A stretch of DNA of 64,000 nt from assembly GCA_011364925.1 (NCBI GenBank), contig RDOA01000001.1, positions 93,997 through 157,996 of the forward strand, read 5' to 3'. The notes under the pieces are model-generated. The model had not been told where the DNA came from and did no database searches. It worked only from the letters and a program-made list of their open reading frames with translations. Shown piece by piece: positions 1,208-47,452 of the stretch (position 1 is its first letter; every line of letters starts with the position of its first letter). A program made the position numbers and the translations under genes. This stretch comes from Promethearchaeota archaeon (GTDB taxonomy: Archaea > Asgardarchaeota > Lokiarchaeia > Sigyniarchaeales > SOKP01).

Positions 1208-4200
1208 TTGCAAATTCTAATAAATTTAGAGGGGATTTCTATTAAAAAATCTACAATTGTTTATTTATTAATATCTACAATTACAATTTGTACATTATTA
1301 ATTTCAGCAGACATGACTTTAAATGATTTAAAATATGTCAACAATTGTAATAATACTGAAACTTATGTTGATGGAACTCCCCCTTTTCTAAGAACTTCTT
1401 CGAATGATCCTCCTAATAAAAATTACTTTCAATACTATAAACAGATCACTATTCCTCACGAAAAAGTTATGGGCTCAGGAAGTCATAAAAACTTTCCTGT
1501 TCTAGTCTCAATTTTGGATTCGGATCTTCGCTATGATGTACAAGCAAGTGGGAATGATATTGCATTTGCAAATGATACAAATTGGTTATATCATGAAATA
1601 GAACTTTTTAATCAATCATATAATAGCACTCATGCTCAATTAGTTAGTTGGGTTCAGATTCCGAACCTTTCAACTTCAGTAGATACAACTATTTACCTCT
1701 ATTACGGAAATGCTACGATGACCTCTCAAGAAAATCCAGAAAGTGTGTGGTCGGATTATACATCTGTTTGGCATCTAAAAGAAAGTAGTGGAAGTGGATA
1801 TTACCTAAAAGATTCTAGTATAAACAGTTATGATGGAGACCCCAGTGGGACAGTTTATTTAGCGAGTGGAAAGATTGCAAGTGCTAGAAATTTTGGGGCA
1901 AATAGCGATAATATTGCCATAAGTGGTGGCTCAAGTCTATTAAATGGGGATAGTCAATTTGTTTTTTCTTTTTGGATGTATCCTAATTATGATAGTGATT
2001 CAGAATGGCAAAATGATGGAGAAAGACGTGTGTTCTATAAGGCCTCGTCCGTTAGGATGGCACGTACTTGGCGGGCAACTTGGCAAGATGCTGGTAAGGG
2101 GATTTTTCAGCCAGATATAGAATTTGATGATTATGGCACAATTTATCCTAATTTTGAAATAAACCGCCAAAGTTGGAATTATATCATTTATTCTTACGAT
2201 AGTAATTATTTTAGAGCTTATATAAATGGACAACTAAAATCATCGCAGTTTATTGGTTCTGACAGCCTCATTTCTGATTCAAGCACTTTTCATTTAGGAG
2301 ATATTGGAAATGATTGTTTTGATGGATACATTGACGAATTTAGAATATCAAACAATGTTAATACCAATGGATGGTACCAAACAGAATATAATAATCAGAA
2401 TAACCCCAATACATTCATTATATTAAGTGAAGAAGAAATTGTTGATCACAACCCCCCCTTATATTCAAATCTAACTGAGAGTTCAAATCCATTGGAATTA
2501 GGAGAAATTGAAATTATTCAAATAAATGTTTCAGATTTCTCAGGTATTTCTCAAGTACTAATAGAGTTCCAAGGATCGAACCATTCGATGTCAAACCTCG
2601 TAGGAAATAAATGGCAATATGATAGTTGGACTCCTAGTAGTGTAGGTAATTATTCCTACACAATTTGGATGGAAGATAATTGTAATAATTGGAATTCAAC
2701 CACTGGTACTATTGAAGTGATTGATAGTACTCCACCAACTTATTCAAACTTAATTGAAAGTGCGGATCCTTTACAATTTGGACAAAATGAAACAATTACT
2801 ATTAAGGTTTATGACTCTCCAGGTTCAGGAGTTAAGCAAGTTTTTTTAGAATATGAAGATGATGATTTAATATATCGTAACCACACGATGAATTTTGAAG
2901 GAAGTAACTCGTGGAGTTGGCATAATTGGAAGCCAATAACCGTGAAAGTTCATTCTTATAAAATTTATATGGAAGATAATGAAGATAACTGGAATATGAC
3001 TAGTGGAACAATAACAATTGCAGATACAACCGCCCCTGTAATAGAAAATCTTATCGAAAGTACCGATCCCTTAGAATTAGGGAACTTTATCACCATAGAC
3101 ATCGATGTCTATGATAATGAAACAATTGTATCAACTGTATTGATTGAATTAGAAGGAGTTAATCACACAATGAGCACTATTGGAGGAAATACATATGAAT
3201 ATAATTGGACTCGATCCGTTGTCGGAATTGTTTCCTATAAGATCTATGCCAATGACTCTGATAATAATTGGAATTCTTTAAGCAGTAGTTTCGATATCAT
3301 AGATACAACTCCACCGGATTTATCAGACCTTTGGAAAAGTGAAGACCCTCTAGAATTAGGAAATACCATCATAATAGCTGTGAATTCTACTGATTTATCG
3401 GATATCAAGCAAGTAAAAATTGAATTTGAAGGTTCTAACCATTCAATGGTATATGTCGGAGGAAACGCATGGGAGTACGATCTTTGGATCCCACCAACTA
3501 CTGGAAATTACTTATATACGATATGGGCAGAAGATAATAATAAAAACTGGGATTATATTAATGACTCGGTTTTCGTTCAAGATACAACCCCCCCAACCTA
3601 TTCAGGTTTGGTTGAAAGTGCTAATCCTGTCGAATTGGGCACATTATTAGCAATCTCGATTAATACTGCAGATTTAGCGGGCATCAAAGAAGTCTTAATA
3701 GAATATGAAAATTCTAACCATACAATGATAAATATAGGGGGAAATATATGGAATTTTGATTCTTGGATGCCAAATTCAATAGGTAATTGTACTTACAAGA
3801 TTTATATAACAGATAATAGTGAAAATTTGAATTACCTTGATAGTTGGATATTATTTATAGATACCATAATTCCAAATTTTGATAATTTATTTGAAAGTGC
3901 TAATCCTTTAGAGTTAGGGGATACTCAGATCATAAGAATAAATGCCTATGATTTCGCAGGTATTAATCAATGCTTAATAGAGTATAAGGGAGCGAATCAT
4001 TCTATGATTAATATCTATGGTAATACGTGGCAGTTTGATTCATGGAGCCCAAATAATTGGACTTTATATCAATACAGAATTTATGTTGAGGATAATAGCG
4101 GAAATTGGAATTTTGTCTTAGATAACTTTACAGTTCAAGATACAACGCCTCCTTCACCCCCCATCTTAACAAATAGTCCGAGTGGGGATGTTAGGGGTAA

Positions 4201-5296
4201 TTTAGTATTTGATTGGTCAGATGGAATTGACCCCTCGGGCATTGTATGTTATATTTTGATAATTGATAACGAAACGGATCCTTTATCAACCCCTGGATAT
4301 ATAAATCTGTTTAATATTTCTAATACTGGAACTGAAAGTAGTTATTATGAACTATCCGAGAACTTACCGGTAGGGAAATACTATTACTTTTTAGCTCAAG
4401 TTGATGGAGCAGGACACCAAAGTAGTTATACAATGGGAACTTTTACGGTTATTTTGAATCCCGATAATCCAGATTTTTTTCTTATTATTATGTTAATTAT
4501 AATTGGTGCTGTGGTTTCAATCGCAGTCGTAGGAATCATAGTAAGGAAAAAGACTCAAAAAGAAACGCATCCCCCTCGTAAAAAAATTCCTTACAAAATC
4601 ACAATTCAACATCTTAATAAAATCTCTCCCCAAATGTCGGGTATGATCGCTAAAGATGCTCAGGAGATCCCAATTATTAAAGAAACAAGTCCCGAAAGTT
4701 TAATCGAAGAAATAGATATAGAGGAGCAAGTTAAATCTTTTAAAGATTTAGGAGAAGAGTTTTTCTCCAATGGAGCTTATTTAGAAGCAATCGAGCAATT
4801 TCAGAATGCTAAAAATCTTCTTTTAAAGCAAGGAAAGGATACAGATGTAACCTTAATTTCAGATTTAATAGAAGGGATTGAAAGATTAGTAGAAGGACGT
4901 GAATCTCGATTAAATTTGTTGAGGAAAGAGAAAACTGAGGGGAACACTGTGAAAATATTCAATTTGTATCAAGAAGTAATTGAAATATCAAATAAATTAA
5001 GAGATTTTGATATAATAACAATGTATCAAAATGAATTAACTGAGTATTTCAAAAATAATTTGTCTAAAATACCAGAAATTGAAAGTTATAGAAATGATTT
5101 AGAAAAAGAAGCAGAATTATTTATATCTACAAGAGATTTTAACCAAGCAGCTCAATTATTTGAAAAGTGTGAGGAAATATCTCAAATTTTGGAAAAATAT
5201 ACAAAAGAAGAAAGAACAAATGTTGAAAAATTTAGGTTTAAGAAAAATGTGTTGAATAAAAGAACTAATCAGAATCACAGAGGAGACATAGAATGA
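1208..5296 (+). CDS. Type I membrane surface protein: signal/TM, DUF2341-like plus LamG/ConA-like domain, 6 Ig-like repeats, FN3-like domain, TM helix, cytoplasmic helical (TPR-like) tail
   Basis: NFPVLVSI..DIAF...WVQIP..YLYYGN (DUF2341-like); FDGYIDEFRIS (LamG); six DxTPP..ESxDPLELG repeats; TM FFLIIMLIIIGAVVSIAVVGIIV-RKK; tail with GEEFFSNGAYLEAIEQFQNA and AELFISTRDFNQAAQLFEKC. The start may be ATT at 1241. Confidence 0.75.
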   Translation: MQILINLEGISIKKSTIVYLLISTITICTLLISADMTLNDLKYVNNCNNTETYVDGTPPFLRTSSNDPPNKNYFQYYKQITIPHEKVMGSGSHKNFPVLVSILDSDLRYDVQASGNDIAFANDTNWLYHEIELFNQSYNSTHAQLVSWVQIPNLSTSVDTTIYLYYGNATMTSQENPESVWSDYTSVWHLKESSGSGYYLKDSSINSYDGDPSGTVYLASGKIASARNFGANSDNIAISGGSSLLNGDSQFVFSFWMYPNYDSDSEWQNDGERRVFYKASSVRMARTWRATWQDAGKGIFQPDIEFDDYGTIYPNFEINRQSWNYIIYSYDSNYFRAYINGQLKSSQFIGSDSLISDSSTFHLGDIGNDCFDGYIDEFRISNNVNTNGWYQTEYNNQNNPNTFIILSEEEIVDHNPPLYSNLTESSNPLELGEIEIIQINVSDFSGISQVLIEFQGSNHSMSNLVGNKWQYDSWTPSSVGNYSYTIWMEDNCNNWNSTTGTIEVIDSTPPTYSNLIESADPLQFGQNETITIKVYDSPGSGVKQVFLEYEDDDLIYRNHTMNFEGSNSWSWHNWKPITVKVHSYKIYMEDNEDNWNMTSGTITIADTTAPVIENLIESTDPLELGNFITIDIDVYDNETIVSTVLIELEGVNHTMSTIGGNTYEYNWTRSVVGIVSYKIYANDSDNNWNSLSSSFDIIDTTPPDLSDLWKSEDPLELGNTIIIAVNSTDLSDIKQVKIEFEGSNHSMVYVGGNAWEYDLWIPPTTGNYLYTIWAEDNNKNWDYINDSVFVQDTTPPTYSGLVESANPVELGTLLAISINTADLAGIKEVLIEYENSNHTMINIGGNIWNFDSWMPNSIGNCTYKIYITDNSENLNYLDSWILFIDTIIPNFDNLFESANPLELGDTQIIRINAYDFAGINQCLIEYKGANHSMINIYGNTWQFDSWSPNNWTLYQYRIYVEDNSGNWNFVLDNFTVQDTTPPSPPILTNSPSGDVRGNLVFDWSDGIDPSGIVCYILIIDNETDPLSTPGYINLFNISNTGTESSYYELSENLPVGKYYYFLAQVDGAGHQSSYTMGTFTVILNPDNPDFFLIIMLIIIGAVVSIAVVGIIVRKKTQKETHPPRKKIPYKITIQHLNKISPQMSGMIAKDAQEIPIIKETSPESLIEEIDIEEQVKSFKDLGEEFFSNGAYLEAIEQFQNAKNLLLKQGKDTDVTLISDLIEGIERLVEGRESRLNLLRKEKTEGNTVKIFNLYQEVIEISNKLRDFDIITMYQNELTEYFKNNLSKIPEIESYRNDLEKEAELFISTRDFNQAAQLFEKCEEISQILEKYTKEERTNVEKFRFKKNVLNKRTNQNHRGDIE
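2444..4138 (+). repeat. Six ~94-aa Ig-like protein repeats inside the 1208..5296 gene
   Basis: Units begin DHNPP/DSTPP/DTTAP/DTTPP/DTTPP/DTIIP; each contains ES.DPLELG, NH[ST]M and Y.I...DN..NWN. Confidence 0.8.
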
Positions 5297-6504
5297 AAAA
5301 AATACCAGGCACGATGTATCATTTTGGATTAACAAACTCTATTAGCGATACATTAAGCATCAACATTTGGTATAGAAGTATGTTAGTATTTGAACAAACA
5401 GGAATTTTTAAGGAGGAAATATTAAAGATTGTTAAGAATTTCCTTGAAAGTAAAAATTTGACTATTCCTAATAATAGATTAGAGTGGATTATAAAAGAAG
5501 AATTAAAAGATTTGTCCCCTGAGAGTGATATTACATTTATTGAAGGTACTGTATCTGAGATACTAGGGGAATTTCAAAAAAAATCCTCTGAAGATGTTAA
5601 AAAAATTGTATTAATGGGCCTTTCCAATGCGGGAAAAACATGTATCTACGAACGCGTGTTTGAAGGGAAAAAACCATGGGAATTAATGCAGTCTAAGGCA
5701 ACAAAAGGTATAGATTACAAGAAGTATGAAGTGGGTGAAATCTCAAAACCTATGATATGGGATTTAGGAGGACAACAGCAATACTTAGATGAATATCATG
5801 GACCTTTAAGAAAGAGCATATTTCAAAAAGCTTCTGTTCTGTTATATGTAATTGATGCCTCTGATGCAGGTAGATATGAAGATGCTAGGGATGAATTTGA
5901 ATGGAGCGTTAATCAGATGCTATCGTTTAATAAAGAGCCAAAATTGAACGTATTTCTTCATAAAATCGATCTTGTTAAGGACAAAAAAGAGTTATTAACA
6001 TATTTTAAGAATTTCCTAGGACAAAAGATATCGCATAATATAAGTTATTACAGTACATCAGTATTTGACGAATCACTTTTTACCGCTTGGAGTGGGATTA
6101 TTCGAGAAATATCTCCGAAATCTACATATATTAAGGCGGTTTTGAAATCTCTTAAGGATCAAGATGGAGTTAAAGATGCTGTGTTAATCGAAAAGACAAG
6201 TGGGCTAGCTTGTGGTTCGACACTAGATGAAAATGAGGAGGAAATCGTCATTGGAATGATTTCATTATTAATTGTAACTTGTGATAAGGTTACTAAAAAT
6301 ATGAAATTTGAAGACTTCATTGAATTTAGGTTAAAAACAAGAGCTCATTACTTATTAATCACTGATGTTACTGCAGATTTAATGCTTGTTGTTATCCTAG
6401 AATCACCAGGTTTTGAAGACCAAAAATTGAAGGAGATTGAAGCTGTAGGAAAAGATGTTGCAATCCAAATTAGAAATCTGTGGTCAGAAGAGGAGGTAGA
6501 TTAA
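5293..6504 (+). CDS. Rag/Gtr1-family small GTPase with an N-terminal extension and a C-terminal roadblock-like domain
   Basis: G1 GLSNAGKT, switch I ATKG, G3 WDLGGQ, Rag-type G4 HKID, G5 TSVFDESLF.AWS.I. C-terminal alpha/beta roadblock pattern (AVLIEKTSGLACGS...YLLITDV..DLMLVVI). ATGA overlap with the upstream gene. Confidence 0.88.
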   Translation: MKKIPGTMYHFGLTNSISDTLSINIWYRSMLVFEQTGIFKEEILKIVKNFLESKNLTIPNNRLEWIIKEELKDLSPESDITFIEGTVSEILGEFQKKSSEDVKKIVLMGLSNAGKTCIYERVFEGKKPWELMQSKATKGIDYKKYEVGEISKPMIWDLGGQQQYLDEYHGPLRKSIFQKASVLLYVIDASDAGRYEDARDEFEWSVNQMLSFNKEPKLNVFLHKIDLVKDKKELLTYFKNFLGQKISHNISYYSTSVFDESLFTAWSGIIREISPKSTYIKAVLKSLKDQDGVKDAVLIEKTSGLACGSTLDENEEEIVIGMISLLIVTCDKVTKNMKFEDFIEFRLKTRAHYLLITDVTADLMLVVILESPGFEDQKLKEIEAVGKDVAIQIRNLWSEEEVD

Positions 6505-6508
6505 GAAA

Positions 6509-7381
6509 ATGCCGCTAGGAATGTTTTTATTAATACACGATGAGGTATTGGGACCAGAAATTAAATGTTCTTATTATGCAAAACCAGTAAATCTCAGTCA
6601 GGAGTTCATTTCAAAATTATATATGTCCCACGCAGGATTTGAATCCTCATCTCATATAGAGATAAAATTTGAAGATTTTAAAAGCATTTCTTGTTTCACA
6701 GGAAATCTAGCCCGCAGAACTCAAAAAGAAGGTATTATGGGAATAATTTTCGAAGAAGACGATGAATTCGATAACTTAGATTTATTTCTACAAAGAAATT
6801 TAGACGAGGTGATACAAAATCCAAAGGATGAGACCTTACAAAAAATATTTTCCCAAAAACTACCAAATTACCTTAAATTGTCCAATCTCTTTCAAAAAGT
6901 GGATATTGAAGGATTTCCAGAAATATTCCTTATAACTGGAAACAATGAATTTAAGTCTCGCCTTCTAAGTATAAGTGAGAGTAGTATTCCATTATCAAAA
7001 ATGAACGATTTTTACAAAAAAATAGTAAAGAACCAAAAAATTCCACAATATCAATACATTAAATTAGATTTGGAAAATGGGTATAACTCGTTTATTGTTT
7101 TAAGAAATAAGGGTTCATCTGAAGATAATAAAAATATGCTTGAGACGCTAAAATTTTACTTAGAAAAAAACATCTATTATTCACTGGAGATTTTAGCCTT
7201 ATTACTCCTAGCAACGGTGATAAGAATAACCGATTTTAAAAAAGATCTCTCGAAGAAGGATTTAAACAAAACAAGGACCGTGTTACAAAGATTACAGCAA
7301 TCTAATGATTATTATAACGAATTCAATAATATTATCTTAGATTTGATAAAAGGAAATATTGTAATTCTCCCTTCTCTATAA
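6509..7381 (+). CDS. Longin/uDENN-like domain protein (NPRL2/FLCN/C9orf72-like N-terminus)
   Basis: N-terminus MPLGMFLLIHDEVLGPEIKCSY fits the beta1-xxxGP-beta2 longin hairpin; loop GNLARRTQK. Starts 4 nt after the GTPase stop. Confidence 0.6.
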   Translation: MPLGMFLLIHDEVLGPEIKCSYYAKPVNLSQEFISKLYMSHAGFESSSHIEIKFEDFKSISCFTGNLARRTQKEGIMGIIFEEDDEFDNLDLFLQRNLDEVIQNPKDETLQKIFSQKLPNYLKLSNLFQKVDIEGFPEIFLITGNNEFKSRLLSISESSIPLSKMNDFYKKIVKNQKIPQYQYIKLDLENGYNSFIVLRNKGSSEDNKNMLETLKFYLEKNIYYSLEILALLLLATVIRITDFKKDLSKKDLNKTRTVLQRLQQSNDYYNEFNNIILDLIKGNIVILPSL

Positions 7382-8392
7382 TTACCTTATTTTTCCTAAT
7401 TTTTCTTCAATTTCTTTGAATAACATTGTACCCATACCAAAATTCACATTTTTAGAAAAAAGTAAGACTAAGACGAATTCTTTTCCTGAAATATCAATAT
7501 TTTTTGAGAAGCATTTTTGATGATCTTTAAATTCAAAATACATGCTTGTTATCTCATTGTTTTGTCTCTCCTTTCTAATGTAAAATTCTTTTATGATGTT
7601 TACTTTCAAATCTGCTGGGAATGATGCGAAAATCAGATTCCACTCACGATCGAAAATAAAAATTCCAAGTATTTCTCGCTCATCAATTAGATTTCTTATT
7701 CCATTCAAATTTACTCCTTGAATCATTAAATTCGAAGCATTATCATTCCCTACTTTTGAAACTCCACTATTTTTACTATCAAATACTTCTATATTTTTTG
7801 ATTCTAAATTCACAACTTGATATCTTTCAACAGATAAAGATCGATCTAATTGTATTTGAATGCTATGTTCACAAAGAATTCCTTTAGGGATGTTTATAGT
7901 TTTAATAATTTGAAATGGGTTAATTAGTTTAGTAGGAATTCTAATTACTTTTCTTATTTCGCATATAGGACATCTTACATTTATGTTATTATATAATCCT
8001 TCTTGATAACTAGTGGTATTATTTATCTCTTGTTTCGAATTGTTTTCGAATTTACTCGAATCTGAGTTATAATCACGCATCTCTATAAGGGATATATTGT
8101 CAAAATATCCTTTTTTGTAAGATTCTAGCTCCTGTTTAAGTTTTATGTTATCTAATCTGAGGAGACCTAAAGCTTTCTTCATTTCTTTATTTTTTTCTTC
8201 TAATCCCTTTAAATGAATTCTTAATAAAGAGTTATCCGATTTCTCCGATTTAGTTTTTAAATCTGCTTCGAATTCCATAATAAAATCTTCTAGAGATTCT
8301 ATTCTATCTAAATGTTCCAATATTTCTTGATCTTTTCTTATTAATTCCGATTTTAGACCTTCAATTTCAGAATTATTTTCCTTATCAGTCAT
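7382..8392 (-). CDS. Coiled-coil, Zn-ribbon (CPIC...CEH) and C-terminal roadblock/longin-like domain protein
   Basis: Heptad-rich N-terminus; CPIC..IP..IPKGILCEH..DRSL.V..YQ; C-terminal ILGIFIFDREWNLIFAS...FVLVLLF..NVNFGMG. Confidence 0.6.
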   Translation of the reverse strand: MTDKENNSEIEGLKSELIRKDQEILEHLDRIESLEDFIMEFEADLKTKSEKSDNSLLRIHLKGLEEKNKEMKKALGLLRLDNIKLKQELESYKKGYFDNISLIEMRDYNSDSSKFENNSKQEINNTTSYQEGLYNNINVRCPICEIRKVIRIPTKLINPFQIIKTINIPKGILCEHSIQIQLDRSLSVERYQVVNLESKNIEVFDSKNSGVSKVGNDNASNLMIQGVNLNGIRNLIDEREILGIFIFDREWNLIFASFPADLKVNIIKEFYIRKERQNNEITSMYFEFKDHQKCFSKNIDISGKEFVLVLLFSKNVNFGMGTMLFKEIEEKLGKIR

Positions 8393-8966: not shown

Positions 8967-9725
8967 ATGGAAAAATTTAGAAAAAATGATCCAGAAACAA
9001 ATGAAAATGGTCCAGATTTTAAATCATTTCACAACAGAGATATAAGAAGATTCGATCCTCGTTTTTTTAATATGTATCGAGGGCCTTCATATCCTAGAAA
9101 TTCAAGAAATAAACATAGACACAATCATTCTCCTCCCTTTCATCCATTTGGTCCACCCTTGCCCATGTCAAGAGAGGAATTCAAAGAGATAAAGCATTTA
9201 ATGATCTTAACTCTATTATCAGAAATTCCTGAAGGCATTTCAGGATATCAATTACAGGAGCAATATAAGTTACCTCGTGGAAGCATGATGAGAAGTTTAA
9301 ATGAATTAGAAGATAATAAATCGTTATCCTCAATTCAAGACATTGTTAAAGGACGCTCTCAGAAAATTTTCAAAATTACAGATAAAGGGAAAGAATACTT
9401 GGAGAAACTTAAAGAAAAATGGACATACCAATTCTTAAGAATGACCGATATTGCACCTATGGAACAATATGGCAATCCATTTGGAAGTTTGCGTTTTAAA
9501 AATCGTTTAATTCGAAATTTAGAAAAGATTGAAGACATCGAAGATGCTATCGACATTTTTAGGGGATATCGATCGAAATTTAAACAAATGTACAAAAGAT
9601 TAGAAAATCGAATGGAGAAGTTGAACAAGACGAAATCGTATCTGGATTCTATCATAACTGAGATAGAAAATATGGATCAATTTGATTTGAATAAAGTAAA
9701 GGAAATGGTAGATAATTTTCCTTAA
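8967..9725 (+). CDS. PadR-family winged-helix transcriptional regulator
   Basis: LMILTLL...ISGYQL......GSM.R.L.ELE..........GRSQKIFKITDKGKEYL; His/Pro-rich N-terminus and coiled-coil C-terminus. Confidence 0.85.
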   Translation: MEKFRKNDPETNENGPDFKSFHNRDIRRFDPRFFNMYRGPSYPRNSRNKHRHNHSPPFHPFGPPLPMSREEFKEIKHLMILTLLSEIPEGISGYQLQEQYKLPRGSMMRSLNELEDNKSLSSIQDIVKGRSQKIFKITDKGKEYLEKLKEKWTYQFLRMTDIAPMEQYGNPFGSLRFKNRLIRNLEKIEDIEDAIDIFRGYRSKFKQMYKRLENRMEKLNKTKSYLDSIITEIENMDQFDLNKVKEMVDNFP

Positions 9726-23248: not shown

Positions 23249-26200
23249 ATTAAAAAGTATAGATATTTTAGGTTTAAAAGTTCATCAATACCGACGAAGA
23301 AGAGACTTGCTCTCACTTTTATCGTAAGTCTTGTTTGTATTGTTATCGTAAGTAGTTTTTTCTCTTATAATAATTCAACAAATATCTTGAATAATATGAA
23401 TAACAACAGAAGGATTGAATACAAGTCACCAAATATTTCTGTCCCACCAACTTTCGATCTGGATTATCCTTTAAATTATTCGTTGTATGGGAAACTTGCT
23501 CCGAATTATTCTTTATCAAAAATTAAAACGGGAAATTATACATGGTATGAATTCTTGGATATCAGTACAAATTCAACGCCAGTAGAATTAGAAGGCACTG
23601 TAAATGAAAATTTTATTGGGACGTTTAACCAATCGATGTGGGACTCTTTAAGCAACGGAACTGCTACAATTCGTTTTTATGTTAATAATTCATTGGGTGA
23701 AATAAGCTTTCTAGACGCAATAATTAGAATTGATATTACAGATCCTTCCATCGACAGTATTGATTCACCCTCGCCAGGAACATGGTTTAGCGCTACACCC
23801 CCAAGTTATAGCCTTTCCATCACAGAGAAGAATCTTGACACTATCTGGTACACGCTCGATGAAGGGACGAACAACTACACCGGAGCGACGAGTGGAACGA
23901 TCGATTCTACCGCCTGGACTAACGCGGGTGACGGCGCAGTTACAATTACGTTCTACGTAAACGATTCTGTAGGTAATTGGGCGTCTTCAAGCGTAGGTGT
24001 TAACAAGGACAGTCTTGATCCTATAATCGATAGCATCGATTCTCCCTTGTCAGGAGCGTGGTATAGTAGTGCCCCTCCAAGTTATAGTCTATCCATAACG
24101 GAAGCGAATTTGGATTCTATCTGGTACACGCTAGATGGAGGATCGAACAATTACACCGGAGCGACGAGCGGAACGATCGATTCTACCGCCTGGACTAACG
24201 CGGGTGACGGCTTAGTTACAATTATGTTCTACGTAAACGATTCAGTAGGTAATATTGATTTTGCGAGTGTAGGTATAAACAAAGATACGCTTGACCCTTC
24301 TATCGACAGCATCGATTCGCCATTGTCAGGGGCGTGGTTTAATAGTGCTCCTCCAGATTATAGTCTTTCCATCACCGAGACGAATTTGGATTCTATTTGG
24401 TATACGCTCGATGGAGGGACAAACAACTTCACCGGAGCAACGAGCGGAACGATCGATTCTACCGCTTGGACTAACGCAGGTGACGGCGCAGTTACGATTA
24501 CGTTTTACGTAAACGATTCTTTGGGTAACTGGGATACCGCAAGTGTTATTGTTAACAAGGACACCCTTGATCCTTCTATCGACAGCATCGATTCTCCATC
24601 ATCTGGGGCGTGGTTTGATAATAATCCCCCAAGTTATAGCCTTTCCATCACGGAACCGAATTTGGATTCTATCTGGCACACGCTTGATGGAGGTTCGAAC
24701 AACTACACCGGAGGGGCGAGTGGAACTATCGACTCTACAGCTTGGATTAACGCGGGAGACGGTGCAGTTACGATTACATTTTATGTAAACGATTCCGTGG
24801 GTAATTTAGATAAAGCGAGTGTTATAGTTAACAAAGATACCCTTGATCCTTCCATTGATAGCATCGATTCGCCCATTTCTGGAGCTTGGTTTAGTAGCGT
24901 TCCTCCAAGTTATAGTCTTTCCATCACTGAGGCGAATCTAGACTCGATTTGGTACACGCTTGATGGAGGATCGAACAACTACACCGGAGCGATGAGCGGA
25001 ACGATCGACTCCACAGCATGGACCAACGCGGGTGACGGCGCAGTTACAATTACGTTTTATGTAAACGATTCCGTGGGCAATATCGATTTTGCAAGCGTAG
25101 CAGTTAATAAAGATACGGTCGATCCTTCTATCGACAATATTGATTCACCATTGTCGGGAGCTTGGTTTGCTGGTACTCCCCCTAGTTATACTTTATCCAT
25201 AACAGAGACAAACCTAAACTCGATTTGGTACACGCTCGATGGAGGTGTGAACAACTACACTGGAGCAACGAGCGGAACGATCGACTCCACAGCATGGACC
25301 AACATGGGTGACGGCGCAGTTACAATTACGTTTTACGTAAACGATTCCGCTGGAAATTTAAATTTTGCGAGTGTAATAATCAATAAAGATAGCGTGAATC
25401 CTTCCATTGATAGCATCAATTCTCCATCGTCTGGTGCGTGGTTTAATAATAATCCTCCAAGTTATAGTCTTTCCATCACCGAGACGAATTTAGACTCAAT
25501 TTGGTATACGCTCGATGGAGGTGCGAACAACTACACAGGAGCAACGAGCGGAACGATCTATTCTACCGCTTGGACTAACGTGGGTAACGGGGCAGTTACA
25601 ATTACGTTTTACGTAAACGATTCCGCTGGTAACTGGGCTTCCTCAAGCGTGGTAATTAACAAAGATAGCATAGATCCTTCTATCGACAGTATTGATTCGC
25701 CTTCTTCGGGCGCTTGGTTTGGTAGTAATCCTCCAAGTTATAGTCTTTCCATCACCGAGACGAATCTAGATTCTATTTGGTACACGCTCGATGGAGGTAC
25801 AAACAACTACACCGGAGGTGCGAGTGGAACTATTGATTCTACCGCCTGGACTAACGCGGGTGATGGTCTTGTAACGATTACTTTTTATGTAAACGACTCC
25901 GCAGGCAATATCGATTTTGCGAGCGTAGCAGTTAACAAAGATACCCTTGACCCTTCCATCGATAGCATCGATTCCCCATCACCGGGAGTGTGGTTTAGTG
26001 GTACTCCTCCAAGTTACAGCTTATCTATCACTGAAACGAATTTGGATTCTATTTGGTACACGCTTGATGGAGGTATAAACAACTACACTGGAGGTTCGAG
26101 TGGAATTATTGATTCTACCGCCTGGACTAACGCGGGTGATAGTCTTGTAACGATTATTTTTTATGTAAACGACTCCGCAGGCAATATCGATTTTGCGAGT

Positions 26201-29200
26201 GTAGCAGTTAACAAAGATACCCTTGACCCTTCCATCGATAGCATCGATTCCCCCTCGTCTGGAGCTTGGTTTGGTAGTGATCCTCCAAGCTACAGCTTAT
26301 CCATCACTGAGGCAAACCTAGACTCGATTTGGTACACCCTTGATGGAGGTACGAACAATTACACTGGAACAACGAGCGGAACGATTGACTCCACAGCCTG
26401 GACTAATGCAGGTGAAGGTGCAGTTACAATTACATTTTACGTAAACGATTCTGTAGGTAATTTGGATACCGCGAGCGTCGTAGTTAACAAAGATAGCGTT
26501 AATCCTTCTATTGATAGCATTGATTCACCATCTTCGGGAGCGTGGATTAGTAACACTCCCCCAACATATAGCCTTTCAATAACTGAAACGAATTTGGATG
26601 AAATCTGGTATACGCTCGATGATGGCATAAACAATTATACAGGAGCGGTAAGTGGAACGATTGACTCCACAGCCTGGACTAATGCGGGTGATGGTCTTGT
26701 AACGATTATTTTTTATGTAAACGACTCAACGGGTAATATTGCTTTTGCGAGCGTAGGTGTCAACAAAGATACCCTTGATCCTTCTATTGATAGCATTGAT
26801 TCGCCATCTTCGGGCGCGTGGTTTAGTAGTAATCCTCCAAGTTATAGCCTTTCCATCACCGAGACGAATTTGGATTCAATCTGGTATACGCTCGATGATG
26901 GTGCGAACAACTACACTGGAGGTTTGAGTGGAATTATTGATTCTACCGCCTGGACTAACGCGGGTGATGGTCTTGTAACGATTATTTTTTATGTAAACGA
27001 TTCCGCTGGTAATTGGGCATCCTCAAGCGTGGTAATTAACAAAGATAGCATAGATCCTTCTATCGACAGTATTGATTCACCTTCTTCGGGCGCTTGGTTT
27101 GGTAGCAATCCTCCAAGTTATAGTCTTTCCATCACCGAGGCGAATTTGGATTCAATCTGGTACACGCTCGATGGAGGTGCGAATAATTACACGGGAGCTA
27201 TAAGCGGAACGATTGATTCAACTGCATGGAGTATCGCGAGTCAGGGAGCAGTTACAATTACATTCTATGTAAACGATTCCGCTGGAAATTTAAATTTTGC
27301 AAGTGTAATAATCAATAAAGACAGCGTCGATCCTTCCATTGATAGCATCGATTCCCCATTACCGGGAGTGTGGTTTAGTAGTACTTCTCCAAGCTATAGT
27401 TTATCCATCACCGAGACGAATTTGGATTCAATCTGGTATACGCTCGATGATGGTGCGAACAATTACACCGGAACGACGAGTGGAACGATAGACTCTACAG
27501 CTTGGACTAACGCGGGTCAGGGATCCGTTACAATTACGTTTTTTGTAAACGATTCCGCTGGTAATTGGGTTTCCTCAAGCGTAGTAATTAACAAAGATAG
27601 CGTTGATCCTTCCATTGATAGTATCGATTCGCCATCCTCAGGAGTGTGGTTTAGTAGCTCACCTCCAAGTTACAGTCTTTCCATCACCGAGACGAATCTG
27701 GATACTATTTGGTATACGCTCGATGGGGGTACGAATAATTATACGGGAGCAGCTAGCGGAACGATAAACTCTACAGCTTGGGCTAACGCAGGTCAGGGAA
27801 CTATTACGATTACATTTTATGTGAACGATTCTGCAGGCAACTGGGCCTCTTCTAGCGTGATAATTAACAAAGATAGCGTTGATCCTTCCATTGATAGCAT
27901 CGATTCCCCATTACTGGGAATGTGGTTTAGTAGTACTCCTCCAAGTTATAGTCTTTCCATCACCGAGACGAATTTAGACTCAATTTGGTACACGCTCGAT
28001 GGAGGGACGACCAACTATACTGGAACAACGAGCGGAACGATTGATTCTACAGAATGGAGTAACGCTGGACAAGGTGCAGTTACGATTACATTTTATGTAA
28101 ATGATTCTGCAGGTAACTGGGCTTCTTCAAGCGTAGTAATTAACAAAGATAGCGTTGTTCCTTCTATCGACAGTATTGATTCGCCATCACCCAGTGAGTG
28201 GTTCAGCAGTAGTCCTCCTAGCTATAGTCTTTCCATTACTGAGACAAATTTAGACTCAATTTGGTACACGCTTGATGGAGGTATAAACAACTATACAGGA
28301 GCAGTAAGTGGAACTATCGATTCTACTGCTTGGTCTAACGCAGGACAAGGACCAGTTACGATTATTTTCTATGTAAACGATTCTGCAGGTAATTTAGCTT
28401 ATTCAAGTGTTGGAATTAATAAAGATAGTATTGATCCCTCGATAAATAGTATCAATTCGCCCTCATCGGGGGCATGGTTTAGTGACACACCTCCTGGTTA
28501 TAGCTTATCCATTACCGAAGCAAATCTAGACTCGATTTGGTATACGTTAGATGGAGGTTTGAATAATTACGCGGGAGCGGCAAGTGGAACGATCGACTTG
28601 ACGGCATGGACTAACGCAGGTCAAGGAGCCGTCACGATAACATTCTATGTAAACGATTCTGCGAGTAATTTAGATTCTGCGAGTGTGATAGTTAATAAAG
28701 ATACCTTACCTCCAATTTTAGTACTTAACACTCCAATGAATAACACTTATGTGAATAATGCCCCTCCAATTAATATCACCGTCTATGATAATTTTGCTAC
28801 TCTAACTTATACAGTATTAGGATACTCTCCTCTTTCACTAACAAATCATACGGCTGTTACCCTTAATCCTGCTATTTGGAGTTCTCTGTCTCAAGGAGTG
28901 TTTTATGTTGTTATTAGTGGTTTCGATTTATTAGGGCAATCCTCTAATCTTACGATCACTCTGTATAAAGATACGATTGCACCCATTATAAGCATCACTT
29001 CACCTGTAAATAACACTTACTCGAATGTACCACCTTATTTAAATGTCAATGCTGTAGATCCGAACCTTGATACAATCTGGTATAGCGTAAATAATGTTAA
29101 TATCACTTTGCAAAATAACACGCTACAGGAGTTGAATAGCTCAATTTGGGCCAGCTTGCAAGACGAAGGACAGTATGAGGTTAAAATATATGCAAACGAT

Positions 29201-32200
29201 ACGTTTGGTCATTTAAATGATCTTTACACGCTTAATCTTTACAAAGATATTATTTATCCTACCTTAATAATAAATTCGCCATTAAATAATTCCTACTATA
29301 AGCTAGAACCTATTATTAATGTTGTAGTTAGTGATCCTTATTTCGATTCTTTATGGTATCGTGTTGGATCCCAGAACATTCCTTTAACTAATGACACAAA
29401 CCAACAATTAACCACTAGTATTTGGAATAATCTACCTGAAGAGGGAAGTTTTATAATTTATTTCTACGCTAACGATAGTGCTGGTAATTTAAACGACTTA
29501 TTTAGTTTGACTCTAAATAAGGATGTAAGAAATCCTGAAGTTATAATTATAAATCCAAACTCAAACGATTTATTCGGGGAACCCTCTCCTGAGTTCCAAA
29601 TTTCCATAAATGAACTTAATTTAAACAAGACATGGTACATGTTATACAACAATTCATGGAGCTCTTTGAATTACACTTTTAGCGGATTAACTGGAGTAAT
29701 TAATCAACTCGCTTGGGACGCATTCAAAAACACAGATGTAACCATTAGATTTTACGCAAACGATACACTGAATAATTTGGGTTATACCGAAGTTACAATT
29801 CGGAAGAATATAATTGCTCCAATAATGACTATTGTTGATCCCCAAGATAATGACTTATTCGGAATTGAAGCCCCAAATATTACGATTTATAAAGCAGGAA
29901 TAGAATTAAATACTACTTGGTACACCCTAGATGGTGGATTAACTAATTTTACTTTTTCAGGATTAAGCGTTGTCGTAAACCAAGATGCGTGGAATAATTA
30001 TGGATTTAGCGATGTAATTATCACTTTTTATGTTAACGATTCGTTAGGAAGAATCGGATTCGACCAGATAATTCTTAAAAAAGATCCAAATCCTCCACAA
30101 ATTCTGATTACTTTCATTAATCCGTCAACTAATAATTCCTATTGTGCAACAGAACCAACTTTCAGAATTGCGGCATATGATCCAAATTTAGTTTCAATTT
30201 GGTATCGGGTCGGTTTAACAAATATAACTTTTACAAATAATTCAGTCTTAATTCTTAACGATACAATCTGGAACAGCTTACCTCAAGGGAAATTCACGGT
30301 CGAGATTTTCGCTGTAGATCAATTAGGATATCTCAACGATTCAATAACCTTGACATTCCACAAGGACACACTTGCTCCTAAACTTGTAATTAATCAACCA
30401 GAGGACTATACCTACTATGATTCGCCACCTCCACTTAATGTTACTGTATATGACCCAAATTACTTATCTTTTTCTCTTACCTACACCGTTGTTGGATACC
30501 TCCCCGATGCTATCACATTAGAGAATAACACTGAGGAATTTCTAAATCCCGCCATTTGGAATAGTCTTCCCCAAGGAGAATTTTCTGTTAGTATTACTGC
30601 CAGAGATACTTTTAATCAACGAAACAATACATTCGTTCTTACGTTATACAAAGATACAATTGGGCCAATTTTTGAAAGCCTTATACCAGAGAATTTCAGT
30701 ACCTACAACTCTCCTCCAACTTTATTAATTTCTTATTCTGACCCCAACCTTCAAACTATTTATTATAAAGTTGGTACAAGTCCAATAATACCCATATCCA
30801 ACGGCATATCTCAAGATCTTGATTCCTCCATTTGGAGTGGCTTAACTGACGTATCTTTTACCATCGAATTTTATGCAAATGATACCTTTGGTCATATGAG
30901 CACTGTTGTGAATCTGACTCTTATTAAGGATACAACTATTCCTCTAATAACTATAAATTCTCCATTAAATAACACATATTATTCTACACCTCCTACTATG
31001 AATTTAGCTTTATTAGATCTCAATCCTGATACAATATGGTATACTGTTCTAGGTAGTAAAGTAATACTTTCGGGAATACAACCATTTGATAACTCTATAT
31101 GGAACAGTTTAGATCAAGGAGAATTTCAAGTATACATATTTGCTAACGATACTGCTGGTAATCTAAATAATACTCTTGTTTTGACATTACTTAAGGATAC
31201 AAAAGCTCCTTTAGTAACGGTTAATTTACCCCTAAACAATACCTATTGGAATACACGACCAACGATTAATGTGGAGGCCTTTGATCCAAACCTAAATCTT
31301 ATTCAATATCTTGTAGCAGGTGGTTATGTTACATTGCAGAATGGAAATGATTCGACACTTGTCCCAATATTATGGAATCTGCTTGGCGAAGGTGAATTTA
31401 CTCTGCAGATTTTTGCTTCTGATACATTTAGTCAAACTAATAGTTCGGTTATACTAACGCTCTATAAAGACACAATATTACCTAATATTGATATCATTTC
31501 CCCCCAACCTAACGATTTCTTTGGAGAGAATGCTCCCTTTGTGTCTATAGATGTTACTGATACGAATTTAGAAGAAATTTGGTACCGGTTAAGCAATGGA
31601 ACGGTTGTTACTAATAATTACCCATGGACAGGTTCTATTGATCAGTCTGTCTGGGACCAGGTCGGAAATGGAACCGTTACCATACGGATTTACGCCAACG
31701 ATACTGCGAGAAATGTACAATTTGAAGAGGTGGTAGTTCGAAAAAACATCTACGCTCCTATAATTAGTATCAATTATTTAGATAATCATTCTCCTTACGA
31801 TAACGAATTATTCGGAATAACTGCGCCTTATTTTGATATTTATACGTCAGGCTCAGAACTACAGTTAACTTGGTATACAATAAATAATGGTATTACAAAT
31901 TTTACATTTACTGGGTTAAGTGGTTCAATAAATCAATCAGCGTGGGATGATTTTGAATCTGGCACTGTTCATACTATAACTTTGACTTTCTATGTTAATG
32001 ATTCTCTCGGAAAAATTGGTTTCGATGAGATAATTATAAGAAAGGACATAGACATCCCAACAGTAGTTATAAATTCTCCTGTTGATCAAACTCCATTCGC
32101 ATCATCTCCGTTACTGGATCTGACTGTAACAGACCCAAATCTACACAAAGTTTGGTATAGTGTCAATGGTGAAACGAGAGATATTACGAACAATTTAACT

Positions 32201-32824
32201 GTATTTCTTGATGATTCCATTTGGAATAGTTTGAGCGATGGTGCTTTTACAATTGAATTTTTTGCGAACGATACTATGGGGAATCTTAATAGTTTAAGAC
32301 ATTTAGATCTTTCCAAAGACACAACTGGTCCTACTATAGAAGTAATTAGACCTACTGAGAATCAGAGAGTTGGTCGAAGCGCTCCTTACATTGAAGTTCA
32401 AATCAGTGATATAAACGGGATGGATAGTTCTTGGTATAGGCTTATTGGATATGGCAATAACACACTTTTTAATGGACCGATTGATAGAGTGGATGTGTCG
32501 TTATGGGAAAATCTTTGGGACTCGCTCCCTGATGGTTCCGCAGTTACAATACGATTCATCTCAAATGATACTCTTGGAAATGTTGCCTTTATTGATGTGG
32601 ACTTGATTATTAATAAACCTGCACTCCCACCAAGAATATTCCAATATCCCTTGGGATTTTTAATTCCCACTTTAGGATTAGTGGCGTTGATTCCTTTTAC
32701 TGTGAAATTGACTAAGACACGATATTACAAATCGTTAAATAACAAGGATAGAAGAAAGTTAAGAAATGCTTTAATAGCTGCAGGATTCTTTCTATCCTTA
32801 CTAGCGGTATATTTTGTCTTTTAG
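23249..32824 (+). CDS. Giant (~3,190 aa) cell-surface glycoprotein built from tandem ~92-aa Ig-like repeats; N-terminal signal/TM and two C-terminal TM helices
   Basis: The track ORF is 23387..32824, but the frame is open upstream to the stop at 23222 and encodes IKKYRYFRFK...KKRLALTFIVSLVCIVIVSSFFSY. Repeats contain WYTLDGG.NNYT and ITFYVNDS.GN. The start position is uncertain. Confidence 0.8.
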   Translation: MKKYRYFRFKSSSIPTKKRLALTFIVSLVCIVIVSSFFSYNNSTNILNNMNNNRRIEYKSPNISVPPTFDLDYPLNYSLYGKLAPNYSLSKIKTGNYTWYEFLDISTNSTPVELEGTVNENFIGTFNQSMWDSLSNGTATIRFYVNNSLGEISFLDAIIRIDITDPSIDSIDSPSPGTWFSATPPSYSLSITEKNLDTIWYTLDEGTNNYTGATSGTIDSTAWTNAGDGAVTITFYVNDSVGNWASSSVGVNKDSLDPIIDSIDSPLSGAWYSSAPPSYSLSITEANLDSIWYTLDGGSNNYTGATSGTIDSTAWTNAGDGLVTIMFYVNDSVGNIDFASVGINKDTLDPSIDSIDSPLSGAWFNSAPPDYSLSITETNLDSIWYTLDGGTNNFTGATSGTIDSTAWTNAGDGAVTITFYVNDSLGNWDTASVIVNKDTLDPSIDSIDSPSSGAWFDNNPPSYSLSITEPNLDSIWHTLDGGSNNYTGGASGTIDSTAWINAGDGAVTITFYVNDSVGNLDKASVIVNKDTLDPSIDSIDSPISGAWFSSVPPSYSLSITEANLDSIWYTLDGGSNNYTGAMSGTIDSTAWTNAGDGAVTITFYVNDSVGNIDFASVAVNKDTVDPSIDNIDSPLSGAWFAGTPPSYTLSITETNLNSIWYTLDGGVNNYTGATSGTIDSTAWTNMGDGAVTITFYVNDSAGNLNFASVIINKDSVNPSIDSINSPSSGAWFNNNPPSYSLSITETNLDSIWYTLDGGANNYTGATSGTIYSTAWTNVGNGAVTITFYVNDSAGNWASSSVVINKDSIDPSIDSIDSPSSGAWFGSNPPSYSLSITETNLDSIWYTLDGGTNNYTGGASGTIDSTAWTNAGDGLVTITFYVNDSAGNIDFASVAVNKDTLDPSIDSIDSPSPGVWFSGTPPSYSLSITETNLDSIWYTLDGGINNYTGGSSGIIDSTAWTNAGDSLVTIIFYVNDSAGNIDFASVAVNKDTLDPSIDSIDSPSSGAWFGSDPPSYSLSITEANLDSIWYTLDGGTNNYTGTTSGTIDSTAWTNAGEGAVTITFYVNDSVGNLDTASVVVNKDSVNPSIDSIDSPSSGAWISNTPPTYSLSITETNLDEIWYTLDDGINNYTGAVSGTIDSTAWTNAGDGLVTIIFYVNDSTGNIAFASVGVNKDTLDPSIDSIDSPSSGAWFSSNPPSYSLSITETNLDSIWYTLDDGANNYTGGLSGIIDSTAWTNAGDGLVTIIFYVNDSAGNWASSSVVINKDSIDPSIDSIDSPSSGAWFGSNPPSYSLSITEANLDSIWYTLDGGANNYTGAISGTIDSTAWSIASQGAVTITFYVNDSAGNLNFASVIINKDSVDPSIDSIDSPLPGVWFSSTSPSYSLSITETNLDSIWYTLDDGANNYTGTTSGTIDSTAWTNAGQGSVTITFFVNDSAGNWVSSSVVINKDSVDPSIDSIDSPSSGVWFSSSPPSYSLSITETNLDTIWYTLDGGTNNYTGAASGTINSTAWANAGQGTITITFYVNDSAGNWASSSVIINKDSVDPSIDSIDSPLLGMWFSSTPPSYSLSITETNLDSIWYTLDGGTTNYTGTTSGTIDSTEWSNAGQGAVTITFYVNDSAGNWASSSVVINKDSVVPSIDSIDSPSPSEWFSSSPPSYSLSITETNLDSIWYTLDGGINNYTGAVSGTIDSTAWSNAGQGPVTIIFYVNDSAGNLAYSSVGINKDSIDPSINSINSPSSGAWFSDTPPGYSLSITEANLDSIWYTLDGGLNNYAGAASGTIDLTAWTNAGQGAVTITFYVNDSASNLDSASVIVNKDTLPPILVLNTPMNNTYVNNAPPINITVYDNFATLTYTVLGYSPLSLTNHTAVTLNPAIWSSLSQGVFYVVISGFDLLGQSSNLTITLYKDTIAPIISITSPVNNTYSNVPPYLNVNAVDPNLDTIWYSVNNVNITLQNNTLQELNSSIWASLQDEGQYEVKIYANDTFGHLNDLYTLNLYKDIIYPTLIINSPLNNSYYKLEPIINVVVSDPYFDSLWYRVGSQNIPLTNDTNQQLTTSIWNNLPEEGSFIIYFYANDSAGNLNDLFSLTLNKDVRNPEVIIINPNSNDLFGEPSPEFQISINELNLNKTWYMLYNNSWSSLNYTFSGLTGVINQLAWDAFKNTDVTIRFYANDTLNNLGYTEVTIRKNIIAPIMTIVDPQDNDLFGIEAPNITIYKAGIELNTTWYTLDGGLTNFTFSGLSVVVNQDAWNNYGFSDVIITFYVNDSLGRIGFDQIILKKDPNPPQILITFINPSTNNSYCATEPTFRIAAYDPNLVSIWYRVGLTNITFTNNSVLILNDTIWNSLPQGKFTVEIFAVDQLGYLNDSITLTFHKDTLAPKLVINQPEDYTYYDSPPPLNVTVYDPNYLSFSLTYTVVGYLPDAITLENNTEEFLNPAIWNSLPQGEFSVSITARDTFNQRNNTFVLTLYKDTIGPIFESLIPENFSTYNSPPTLLISYSDPNLQTIYYKVGTSPIIPISNGISQDLDSSIWSGLTDVSFTIEFYANDTFGHMSTVVNLTLIKDTTIPLITINSPLNNTYYSTPPTMNLALLDLNPDTIWYTVLGSKVILSGIQPFDNSIWNSLDQGEFQVYIFANDTAGNLNNTLVLTLLKDTKAPLVTVNLPLNNTYWNTRPTINVEAFDPNLNLIQYLVAGGYVTLQNGNDSTLVPILWNLLGEGEFTLQIFASDTFSQTNSSVILTLYKDTILPNIDIISPQPNDFFGENAPFVSIDVTDTNLEEIWYRLSNGTVVTNNYPWTGSIDQSVWDQVGNGTVTIRIYANDTARNVQFEEVVVRKNIYAPIISINYLDNHSPYDNELFGITAPYFDIYTSGSELQLTWYTINNGITNFTFTGLSGSINQSAWDDFESGTVHTITLTFYVNDSLGKIGFDEIIIRKDIDIPTVVINSPVDQTPFASSPLLDLTVTDPNLHKVWYSVNGETRDITNNLTVFLDDSIWNSLSDGAFTIEFFANDTMGNLNSLRHLDLSKDTTGPTIEVIRPTENQRVGRSAPYIEVQISDINGMDSSWYRLIGYGNNTLFNGPIDRVDVSLWENLWDSLPDGSAVTIRFISNDTLGNVAFIDVDLIINKPALPPRIFQYPLGFLIPTLGLVALIPFTVKLTKTRYYKSLNNKDRRKLRNALIAAGFFLSLLAVYFVF
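23732..28699 (+). repeat. 18 tandem copies of a 276-bp (92-aa) intragenic repeat
   Basis: GAT of D(I/S/T)xDP recurs every 276 bp from 23732 to 28700 (4968 = 18 x 276). More divergent copies continue to about 32600. Confidence 0.92.
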
Positions 32825-46800: not shown

Positions 46801-47452
46801 CAAAGTTTGGGAATTAGATACTGGAAAACTCATCCATACTCTCAAGGGACATACCTTTTACGTACTATCCGTTGCTATTTCTCCTGACGGGAGATATATT
46901 GCGAGTGGCTCATTCGACAGGACTATTAAAATTTGGGAATTATCAACTGGAAAACTTGTGAGGACGATTGATGGGCATCAGAAGGAAATAAATTCGATTA
47001 CGATATCCTCTGATAATAAGTATCTCGTAAGTGGATCAGCCGATAAGACTATAAAAATCTGGGATTTTCCTAGTGGGGAGTTATTTAAAACTATTCATGG
47101 TTCAAATAGGCCAGTGACTTCAGTTGCGTTTTCTTCAGATGAAAAATATGTAATTAGTAGTTCTAGAGACAAATCTATTAAAGTGTGGGAAGTTACATCA
47201 GGAAATCTTGTAAGAACTTTGGAAGGGCATGCGTTCTTTGTGCTATCTATAATACTTTCTCCCAACGATAAATATTTAGTCAGTGGCTCATTTGATAGGC
47301 AAGTTAAGGTTTGGGATTTTTTAACTGGAAGTGTGATTGAAACGCTTAAAAAGCACAAAAAAGAGGTTAATTCCGTGGCTTTCTCTCCAGACTATAAATA
47401 CATCGTTAGTGGTTCTTCTGATAATAAGATTAATATCTGGGAAATCCATTAA
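43895..47452 (+). CDS. Single-pass receptor-like protein: extracellular parallel beta-helix (NosD/CASH-like), TM, Glu-rich repeat linker, 7-bladed WD40 propeller
   Basis: GNGT..NPYIIEN followed by many GI.L..S..N.I..N repeats; TM FIIIGIVLAIIAIVIVASFVI-KSRR; seven GH...VTSV.ISPD...SGS.D.TIK.W repeats. Confidence 0.85.
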   Translation: MGEYINIKLNKTVAFCLLGVIILILFNFSQIIDNLNFNNLTYGTEIENYAGDIKSSSYWFLTSPIEINDLEANNWTWAEEEPWFGGGNGTLNNPYIIENVTINVEKNFDFGINIQNSNKHLLINNCTVSKANLTGILLRNVNNSVIINNKAFNNSIVGIGLVSSNLNLIFGNNISGNSIGGIGLNTSYYNSVLNNTVFSNTGYGIGLEYCDYNTISNNTATFNGEQGIGLLNCKNITVSRNNASFNSLAGIGISFCNNSSIKHNIVDSNIGSGISFGTCSFTSILDNTILSNAGSGIDIGNSDRNTISNNVINTNRNDGIIIVDCNYNTFSNNAINNNRDQGMNIRTCNFNTLSSNAINNNRDLGIGLWNCLHNIVSGNDANGNGDSGISLEACSISSITGNTANVNDLNGIYMYNCFITNISVNTIVSNPQYGIGLWYSDNIDISENLVEDNGWAIFLQYCNENNIIENDVIESDNLGIALWFSDNNIITGNYLDNNDYYGIYLVRSHINSITSNSINNDHNGIYLESSTINTILTNTITNNYNGIYLVSGQSNSIVGNSINANHNGIYLELSDSNTIQSNTITNNQYGIYLFSSYSNFVSNNIFDSNVVDIFDSEEGNGGYPNDGDLNPFIIIGIVLAIIAIVIVASFVIKSRRSSKIKGTSVSKPKIGPQTQAEFKKPQPELRLIPPSKQVEEEDEVEVLPQEIIPKEEEIIEEEVIAPIEEIPEEEQVLEEEIIESLEEIPKGEEIVEEEVIAPIEEIPEEEQVVEEEIIEPLEEIPKGEEIVEEEVITPFEEIPEEEQIVEEKVIASIEEIPEEKQIVEEEVIGPLKEIPKEEEIVEGKVIAPPEEMSEKVEDVEEQVVISPPEIIKKQKLAATEGIKFKAPDTIEKILLLKTLSGHLLGVTSVAISPYGELIVSGSKDKTIRLWELPSGNLVRILRGHSKNVTSVTISPDEKYIISGSNDKSIKVWELDTGKLIHTLKGHTFYVLSVAISPDGRYIASGSFDRTIKIWELSTGKLVRTIDGHQKEINSITISSDNKYLVSGSADKTIKIWDFPSGELFKTIHGSNRPVTSVAFSSDEKYVISSSRDKSIKVWEVTSGNLVRTLEGHAFFVLSIILSPNDKYLVSGSFDRQVKVWDFLTGSVIETLKKHKKEVNSVAFSPDYKYIVSGSSDNKINIWEIH
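46020..46500 (+). repeat. 54-bp (18-aa) acidic tandem repeat with a 108-bp higher-order unit
   Basis: EEEVIAPIEEIPEEEQVL alternates with EEEIIESLEEIPKGEEIV; GTTATTGCTCC occurs at 46049 and 46157. Confidence 0.8.

Follow-up and report, generated by a model that had tools for sequence, protein, structure and literature searches.

Asgard genomes carry dozens of small GTPases, longins and roadblock proteins, and systems built from such parts have been described in eukaryotes, bacteria and archaea. The closest eukaryotic ones are RagA/Gtr1–GATOR1 (NPRL2–NPRL3) and RagC–FLCN–FNIP, and roadblock proteins also occur in Ragulator/EGO (LAMTOR2/3) and as MglB in Myxococcus. In the actinobacterial conservon/AGPS, the sensor is a histidine kinase (CvnA) and the GTPase is MglA-like. 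An Asgard roadblock-Rab-DENN operon has been reported together with NPRL2-like proteins (Liu et al., 2020; 10.1101/2020.10.19.343400); its GTPase is described there as Rab-like and different from Rags, and the same study reported no homolog of the mTOR kinase among Asgard archaea. Longins that act as GAPs have been defined by a GP motif before strand 2 plus an arginine finger; GP was reported absent from non-GAP longins, and both hallmarks were found in some Asgard longins, with the partner GTPase left open (PMC12290439). In MK-D1, GTPases generally lie outside longin operons, and cognate pairs are unreadable from gene order (PMC10933270).

Here we describe a cassette of three coupled genes, encoding a type I surface protein with a TPR-like tail, a Rag and a longin, in a 64,000-nt stretch of DNA (the window) from a Loki-type Asgard genome (Lokiarchaeia, Promethearchaeota). 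Like the eukaryotic Rag systems, the cassette has a Rag G domain with a C-terminal roadblock, but there is one Rag at the locus, it bears an extra N-terminal domain, and the cassette is tied to a cell-surface protein rather than to the lysosome. As in GATOR1 and FLCN–FNIP, the longin combines a GP motif with a candidate arginine finger, and NPRL2 is its top fold match; in contrast to those complexes, a single chain that carries a second longin/roadblock-like domain would serve as the GAP. A fourth, adjacent gene shares a C-terminal roadblock with Ragulator/EGO and MglB, but here the roadblock is fused to a Zn ribbon and an optional coiled coil without a transmembrane (TM) helix, and the gene is usually convergent and belongs to a family that is widespread without the cassette. 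The roadblock-Rab-DENN operon is likewise a conserved Asgard operon of a small GTPase and a longin/DENN regulator, but its GTPase is Rab-like and it includes no surface protein. The same GP and Arg motif pair is found in GP-motif Asgard longins (PMC12290439) and the same GTPase-roadblock architecture in the Rag-like GTPases of MK-D1 (PMC10933270; LokiRagO, 8yl2; LokiRagM, 9m28), whereas in the cassette the pair is fixed by gene order. The conservon/AGPS (PMC13343842) is also an operon of a membrane protein, a roadblock-type regulator and a small GTPase; the cassette differs in its non-catalytic tail, its Rag and longin, and the absence of a kinase. No description of a surface protein combined with a Rag and a GP/Arg longin was found in the literature searched, which left subscription journals mostly outside its coverage; the parts belong to known families, and their combination is apparently new in that literature. 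The cassette would work like a minimal Rag-GAP module, with membership of GATOR1, folliculin or Ragulator not established.

The four ORFs (Table 1) had been reported in an initial annotation with an ATGA overlap at 5293-5296 coupling genes 1 and 2, a 4-nt gap between genes 2 and 3, and stop-to-stop abutment of genes 3 and 4 at 7381/7382, and all of these were confirmed in the DNA. SD-like motifs lie ahead of both Rag and longin, each within the preceding gene. Gene 1 may start at ATT 1241 instead of TTG 1208, with GAGGGG 6 nt upstream of 1241, and near-invariance of the N-terminal MKKIPGT among relatives shows that the Rag start codon is real. A scan for sigma-70 promoters and terminators gave results at chance level, such models being ill-suited to archaea. 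Because gene 4 lies on the opposite strand, the operon comprises three genes, not four. The same genome has a second, diverged copy of the locus with the full four-gene set on contig C70.

Table 1. Features of the locus (window coordinates)
Feature	Position	Strand	Description
Gene 1, surface protein	1208..5296	+	ORF, 1362 aa; signal peptide, DUF2341+LamG, six ~97-aa Ig-like repeats, juxtamembrane domain, TM helix, ~250-aa cytoplasmic tail
DUF2341 + LamG (concanavalin-like) unit	1550..2359	+	0-4 copies in relatives
TM helix, then basic stop-transfer stretch	4481..4549	+	C-terminus inside
Cytoplasmic tail, conserved	4550..5296	+	Juxtamembrane helix, linker, TPR/MIT-like helical hairpins; proposed docking site for Rag or longin
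Gene 2, Rag-like GTPase	5293..6504	+	ORF, 403 aa; N-terminal domain aa 1-100, G domain, C-terminal roadblock
Gene 3, longin protein	6509..7381	+	ORF, 290 aa; longin aa 1-130, second longin/roadblock-like aa 133-222, small C-terminal alpha/beta part
Gly15-Pro16 (GP motif), invariant	6551..6556	+	Just before strand 2 (modelled 15-23)
Arg69, invariant; candidate arginine finger	6713..6715	+	Loop between strands 4 and 5 (57-63, 76-82)
Gene 4, convergent Zn-ribbon/roadblock	7382..8392	-	ORF, 336 aa; coiled coil about aa 5-95 (optional), Zn ribbon C141/C144/C174/H176, roadblock about aa 219-334

Gene 2 had been described as a GTPase with Rag motifs and a roadblock C-terminus, and Pfam agrees on both (Gtr1_RagA, 3e-41, 141.7 bits against a cut-off of 22; Robl_LC7, 1.4e-6, 28.3 bits against a cut-off of 23); to this we add the 100-aa N-terminal domain, for which profile searches of solved structures gave no significant match. 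The G domain has an intact P-loop, Thr137, WDLGGQ (Gln161), HKID and TSVFDESL, and all G motifs including the catalytic Gln161 are invariant (35 orthologs; alignment to Gtr1). The best solved-structure match is yeast Gtr1 (3.5e-23), above the solved Loki Rags. By these motifs, gene 2 encodes a Rag-type GTPase with a catalytic Gln. Rag/Gtr GTPases are obligate heterodimers that pair through their roadblocks; no second Rag is present at the locus, and the partner of the Rag roadblock could be the Rag itself, gene 4 or gene 3.

In a mixture-model tree that did not include RagC, the cassette Rags formed a clade (99/96) separate from 11 further Rag/Arf-like GTPases encoded in this genome. A branch supported at 100/96 placed this clade on the same side as RagA, but inside a polytomy. 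A single clade of cassette Rags with RagA was not rejected (AU p 0.62). A first quick tree had placed the Rag nested among Asgard proteins, which is not counted against the RagA link because the constrained tree scored higher. The cassette Rag thus appears to group with eukaryotic RagA, a sister relationship being neither rejected nor demonstrated. The closest Rag relatives with the same N-terminal domain occur without the cassette, next to guaA and other unrelated genes. The view of the locus as a prokaryotic forerunner of eukaryotic Rag signalling finds no support here, given this polytomy, the cassette-less nearest Rag relatives and the patchy occurrence of the cassette within one class. 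Distant Rags with the same N-terminal domain were also observed in a sister family (loci L084-L089), often divergent from a small GTPase and also adjoining a 940-1050-aa protein of no recognised identity.

Gene 3 gave no significant match to Pfam, the NPR2 and Folliculin models included, or in a profile search of solved structures. In its predicted model (pLDDT 81, pTM 0.75), NPRL2 chains are the top fold match (Z 11.8 over 175 residues, rmsd 7.1), extending past the longin to NPRL2 residue 238. Their lead over a Loki longin and VAMP7 is small, about 1 Z unit, and the rmsd is high; the matches to longins span Z 9-11.8. FLCN and DENND1 align chiefly over the longin part, and for the second domain the matches are roadblock/profilin folds (Z about 8). 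Of the earlier longin/uDENN-like description, the longin fold stands in the model, whereas the second domain is longin/roadblock-like and DENN is not recognisable. GP and Arg69 are invariant in 119 sequences and retained in the most divergent Rag-linked copies, and Arg96 and several Lys are likewise invariant; since the sequences are close kin, mostly 45-65% identical, this invariance partly reflects shared descent. The combination of GP and Arg69 is absent from six other aligned longins of this genome. Both were lost in one Rag-less copy (L047) and retained at two Rag-less loci (L013 and L048).

The arginine finger of eukaryotic longin GAPs (NPRL2 R78, FLCN R164) presumably lies in the loop equivalent to that of Arg69, and the loop position makes Arg69 a candidate equivalent of NPRL2 Arg78. 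Given the NPRL2-like fold and the invariant GP and Arg69, we consider it fairly probable that the longin is the Rag's own GAP, with Arg69 supplied in trans; the FLCN/NPRL2-like reading of the initial annotation has gained support from the same two invariant features. Eukaryotic longin GAPs (NPRL2, FLCN, SMCR8) require a second longin chain (NPRL3, FNIP, C9orf72), which counts against gene 3 as a GAP. Prediction of a complex of Rag, longin, GTP and Mg scored 0.28 against a mark of 0.32 and gives no evidence either way. At two loci from another family of the same taxonomic order, a small Rab-like GTPase is directly followed by a GP-motif longin without Arg69 (L051, 5689-7125; L052, 6948-8599), an arrangement that possibly corresponds to the operon described by Liu et al. 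(2020).

Gene 1 had been described as a single-pass LamG/Ig protein with a cytoplasmic helical tail, and it does have a type I layout of signal peptide, ectodomain, single TM helix and cytoplasmic C-terminus, with hydrophobic peaks at residues 16 and 1090, Pfam matches to LamG (1.5e-10, above the Pfam cut-off), DUF2341 (9.5e-8) and, weakly, Ig, and 28 N-glycosylation sequons. Complete relatives span about 830 to 2330 residues, and their ectodomains hold 0-4 DUF2341+LamG units and 1-7 repeats, or, in one relative (L044), an FG-GAP propeller in place of the usual units. Five Rag-linked surface proteins are missing the DUF2341+LamG unit; LamG is dispensable in cassette surface proteins, and "lectin-like" does not hold as a constant trait of the proposed receptor. 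The tail can be aligned across all relatives despite this shuffling. It gave a weak TPR_2 match in 12 of 20 members (best, 9.5e-5), and no kinase family was found by Pfam or NCBIfam in gene 1 or the tail. Sequence-profile searches of solved structures gave no significant match for tail or ectodomain, and an atlas look-up of the tail yielded nothing beyond unnamed clusters and weak leads. The surface protein joins a variable exterior to a conserved, non-catalytic helical tail. Elsewhere in the window, 43895-47452 (+) encodes a 1185-aa single-pass protein with a signal peptide, a beta-helix/NosD ectodomain, a TM helix near residue 633 and a C-terminal WD40 propeller, which is presumably cytoplasmic and would make this another receptor-like design. 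The 3145-aa product of 23387-32824 (+) is probably a giant surface protein; it has numerous Ig-like repeats and hydrophobic segments near its C-terminus, matches Peptidase_M9_N in part and lacks HExxH.

The Zn ribbon and roadblock attributed to gene 4 were borne out by its model, and both the longin fold of the 6509 protein and the roadblock fold of the 7382 protein are present in the structural models. Gene 4 had no significant match in Pfam or in a profile search of solved structures, its atlas look-up gave unnamed clusters or weak leads only, and its profile shows no similarity to the Rag roadblock; nevertheless, its modelled roadblock matches LAMTOR2 (Z 11.8, rmsd 2.7, 105 residues) and MglB (E 3.5e-4), and it is a true roadblock. 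Ragulator subunits bind the Rag roadblock and are anchored to the membrane through LAMTOR1. In about 35 of 45 informative loci, all belonging to the window's family, the longin gene is followed by gene 4, nearly always in convergent orientation; more distant cassette loci lack it. Of 161 genomes, 90 have close paralogs of gene 4, and the cassette is missing from about 50 of those 90. Gene 4 is an accessory at best, because its paralogs are widespread without the cassette and sit beside unrelated genes. The "Ragulator" reading is likewise weak, gene 4 not being co-transcribed here and having paralogs in so many cassette-less genomes. For these reasons the self-contained four-gene operon that had been proposed was reduced to three genes. 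In the genome of the window, a further Zn-ribbon paralog lies two genes from the second cassette copy (L001, 4623-5162; C70), and at least three more paralogs of gene 4 lie elsewhere. Divergent from gene 4 in the window is a PadR-like regulator with a coiled coil (8967-9725, +), which is not conserved beside the cassette.

Conservation of gene order was assessed at 47 distinct longin loci, of which 46 were informative and one lay at an edge. Directly upstream of the longin lies the Rag in 43 of the 46 and a tail gene in the other three; directly upstream of the Rag, where visible, a tail gene was found in every case (33/33, across three families). The loci are not independent, being kin, and these counts describe a pattern rather than a statistical test. 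The flanks differ among loci: the 12 valid upstream neighbours are all unrelated, and the 25 downstream ones represent about 23 families. A frozen core-genome block was rejected accordingly. The three genes travel as a unit, and their order is kept in relatives, as the initial annotation had required. Roughly 40 of the class's 161 genomes, from three families, have the parts together, and most of the remaining genomes have none of them. Nearly every related locus comes from a Promethearchaeota record or from a genome of the same class as the window; in those other classes of the phylum that were sampled, no longin match was obtained. Two closed genomes have only the distant Rag type that sits beside guaA and other unrelated genes, and no longin match. 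At a locus of another family (L078, 298-11461), a soluble tail-only gene immediately precedes the gene of a membrane protein of 1252 aa and lies about 4 kb from two Rag-like GTPases in tandem; this genome gave no longin match. A duplicated longin fragment (L071, 11729-11998) was also observed.

We tentatively favor, with rather less than even confidence, a switch encoded by three genes, in which a Rag docked at the membrane has its own GAP. The tail probably docks the Rag, or the Rag-GAP pair, at the membrane, possibly through the extra N-terminal domain of the Rag. GTP-loaded Rag would bind the tail and cluster or position adhesin-like surface proteins, and the longin, acting as the Rag's GAP with Arg69 in trans, would then reset the switch; its second domain possibly stands in for the NPRL3/FNIP partner. 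Gene 4 would be an optional accessory that might, though this is doubtful, pair with the Rag roadblock.

The direction of signalling in this proposal is finely balanced. Because no effector is present in the cassette and the tail is non-catalytic, we lean slightly toward the surface protein as output rather than input, and taking the tail for a dock or effector of the Rag needs slightly fewer assumptions than sensing from outside. The cassette encodes no enzyme or DNA-binding output, and a tail-less sibling with a matching ectodomain exists (L066). TPR domains bind GTP-loaded small GTPases elsewhere, as in MglA-SgmX and Rac-p67phox. The extracellular input of the initial annotation was, as written, an unsupported inference. 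An outside-in receptor, in which an ectodomain ligand changes the tail, the Rag is loaded with GTP or the GAP released, and an effector encoded elsewhere responds, has perhaps a one-in-four standing as a complete account, and sensing as such stays nearly as likely as output because many ectodomains share one Rag. The variable ectodomains on a constant tail suit a receptor, as does the juxtamembrane ectodomain module, retained in nearly all relatives. In addition, four MAGs (G205, G210, G219 and G261) hold four to six tail-bearing surface proteins for one Rag, the extra tail genes sitting in tandem ahead of the Rag or elsewhere in the genome, an arrangement resembling many-sensors-one-transducer systems. 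However, many tails with one Rag would also fit one switch controlling many adhesins, contamination of these MAGs is 6-9%, the cassette lacks an effector, and soluble tails without a TM helix exist (L048, L078 and L079).

Alternatively, the longin may be a GEF, or a scaffold bridging tail and Rag, as most longins are (Mon1-Ccz1, TRAPP, DENN), rather than a GAP. This we regard as improbable. Its tandem longin/roadblock-like domains and the presence of Mon1-Ccz1 and Fuzzy-Inturned among the Foldseek matches are in keeping with such a role, and the three loci in which the tail gene adjoins the longin without an intervening Rag suggest a direct tail-longin tie. On the other hand, Arg69 is invariant, NPRL2 ranks above the GEFs, and GP is reportedly absent from non-GAP longins (PMC12290439).

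A similarly small chance is given to mere co-regulation or a lineage-specific duplicated unit, in which a structural adhesin never touches the Rag and overlapping 3' ends hold gene 4 in place. Patchy distribution and orphan tails are compatible with it, as are decayed copies, namely a broken longin gene in a second cassette copy (L082, 9123-9340), a gene 4 remnant (L058, 4461-4697) and L096. So are the stop-to-stop overlaps of up to 22 nt at the longin/gene 4 junction of most loci and the gene 4 paralogs found next to unrelated metabolic genes. This account fits poorly with a 250-aa tail conserved while the ectodomain shuffles, with the invariable tail-Rag adjacency across three families, and with L054 and L082, where gene 4 is inverted and co-directional and still attached, probably through one event. 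The most far-reaching scheme, in which variable receptors feed one Rag with an NPRL2-type arginine-finger GAP and a roadblock scaffold, the Rag-GAP pair sharing ancestry with RagA-GATOR1, is more improbable still.

To our knowledge, no cellular role is known for any archaeal Rag, and the surface protein of the cassette, whose tail we take as the probable dock of the membrane-docked switch, offers a candidate for such a role. The cassette provides a matched, testable set for studying how Rag signalling parts worked outside eukaryotes, and a way to test archaea for arginine-finger GAP chemistry by longins acting on Rags. For the question raised by the GP-motif longins (PMC12290439), it names one GTPase-longin pair and one residue, Arg69.
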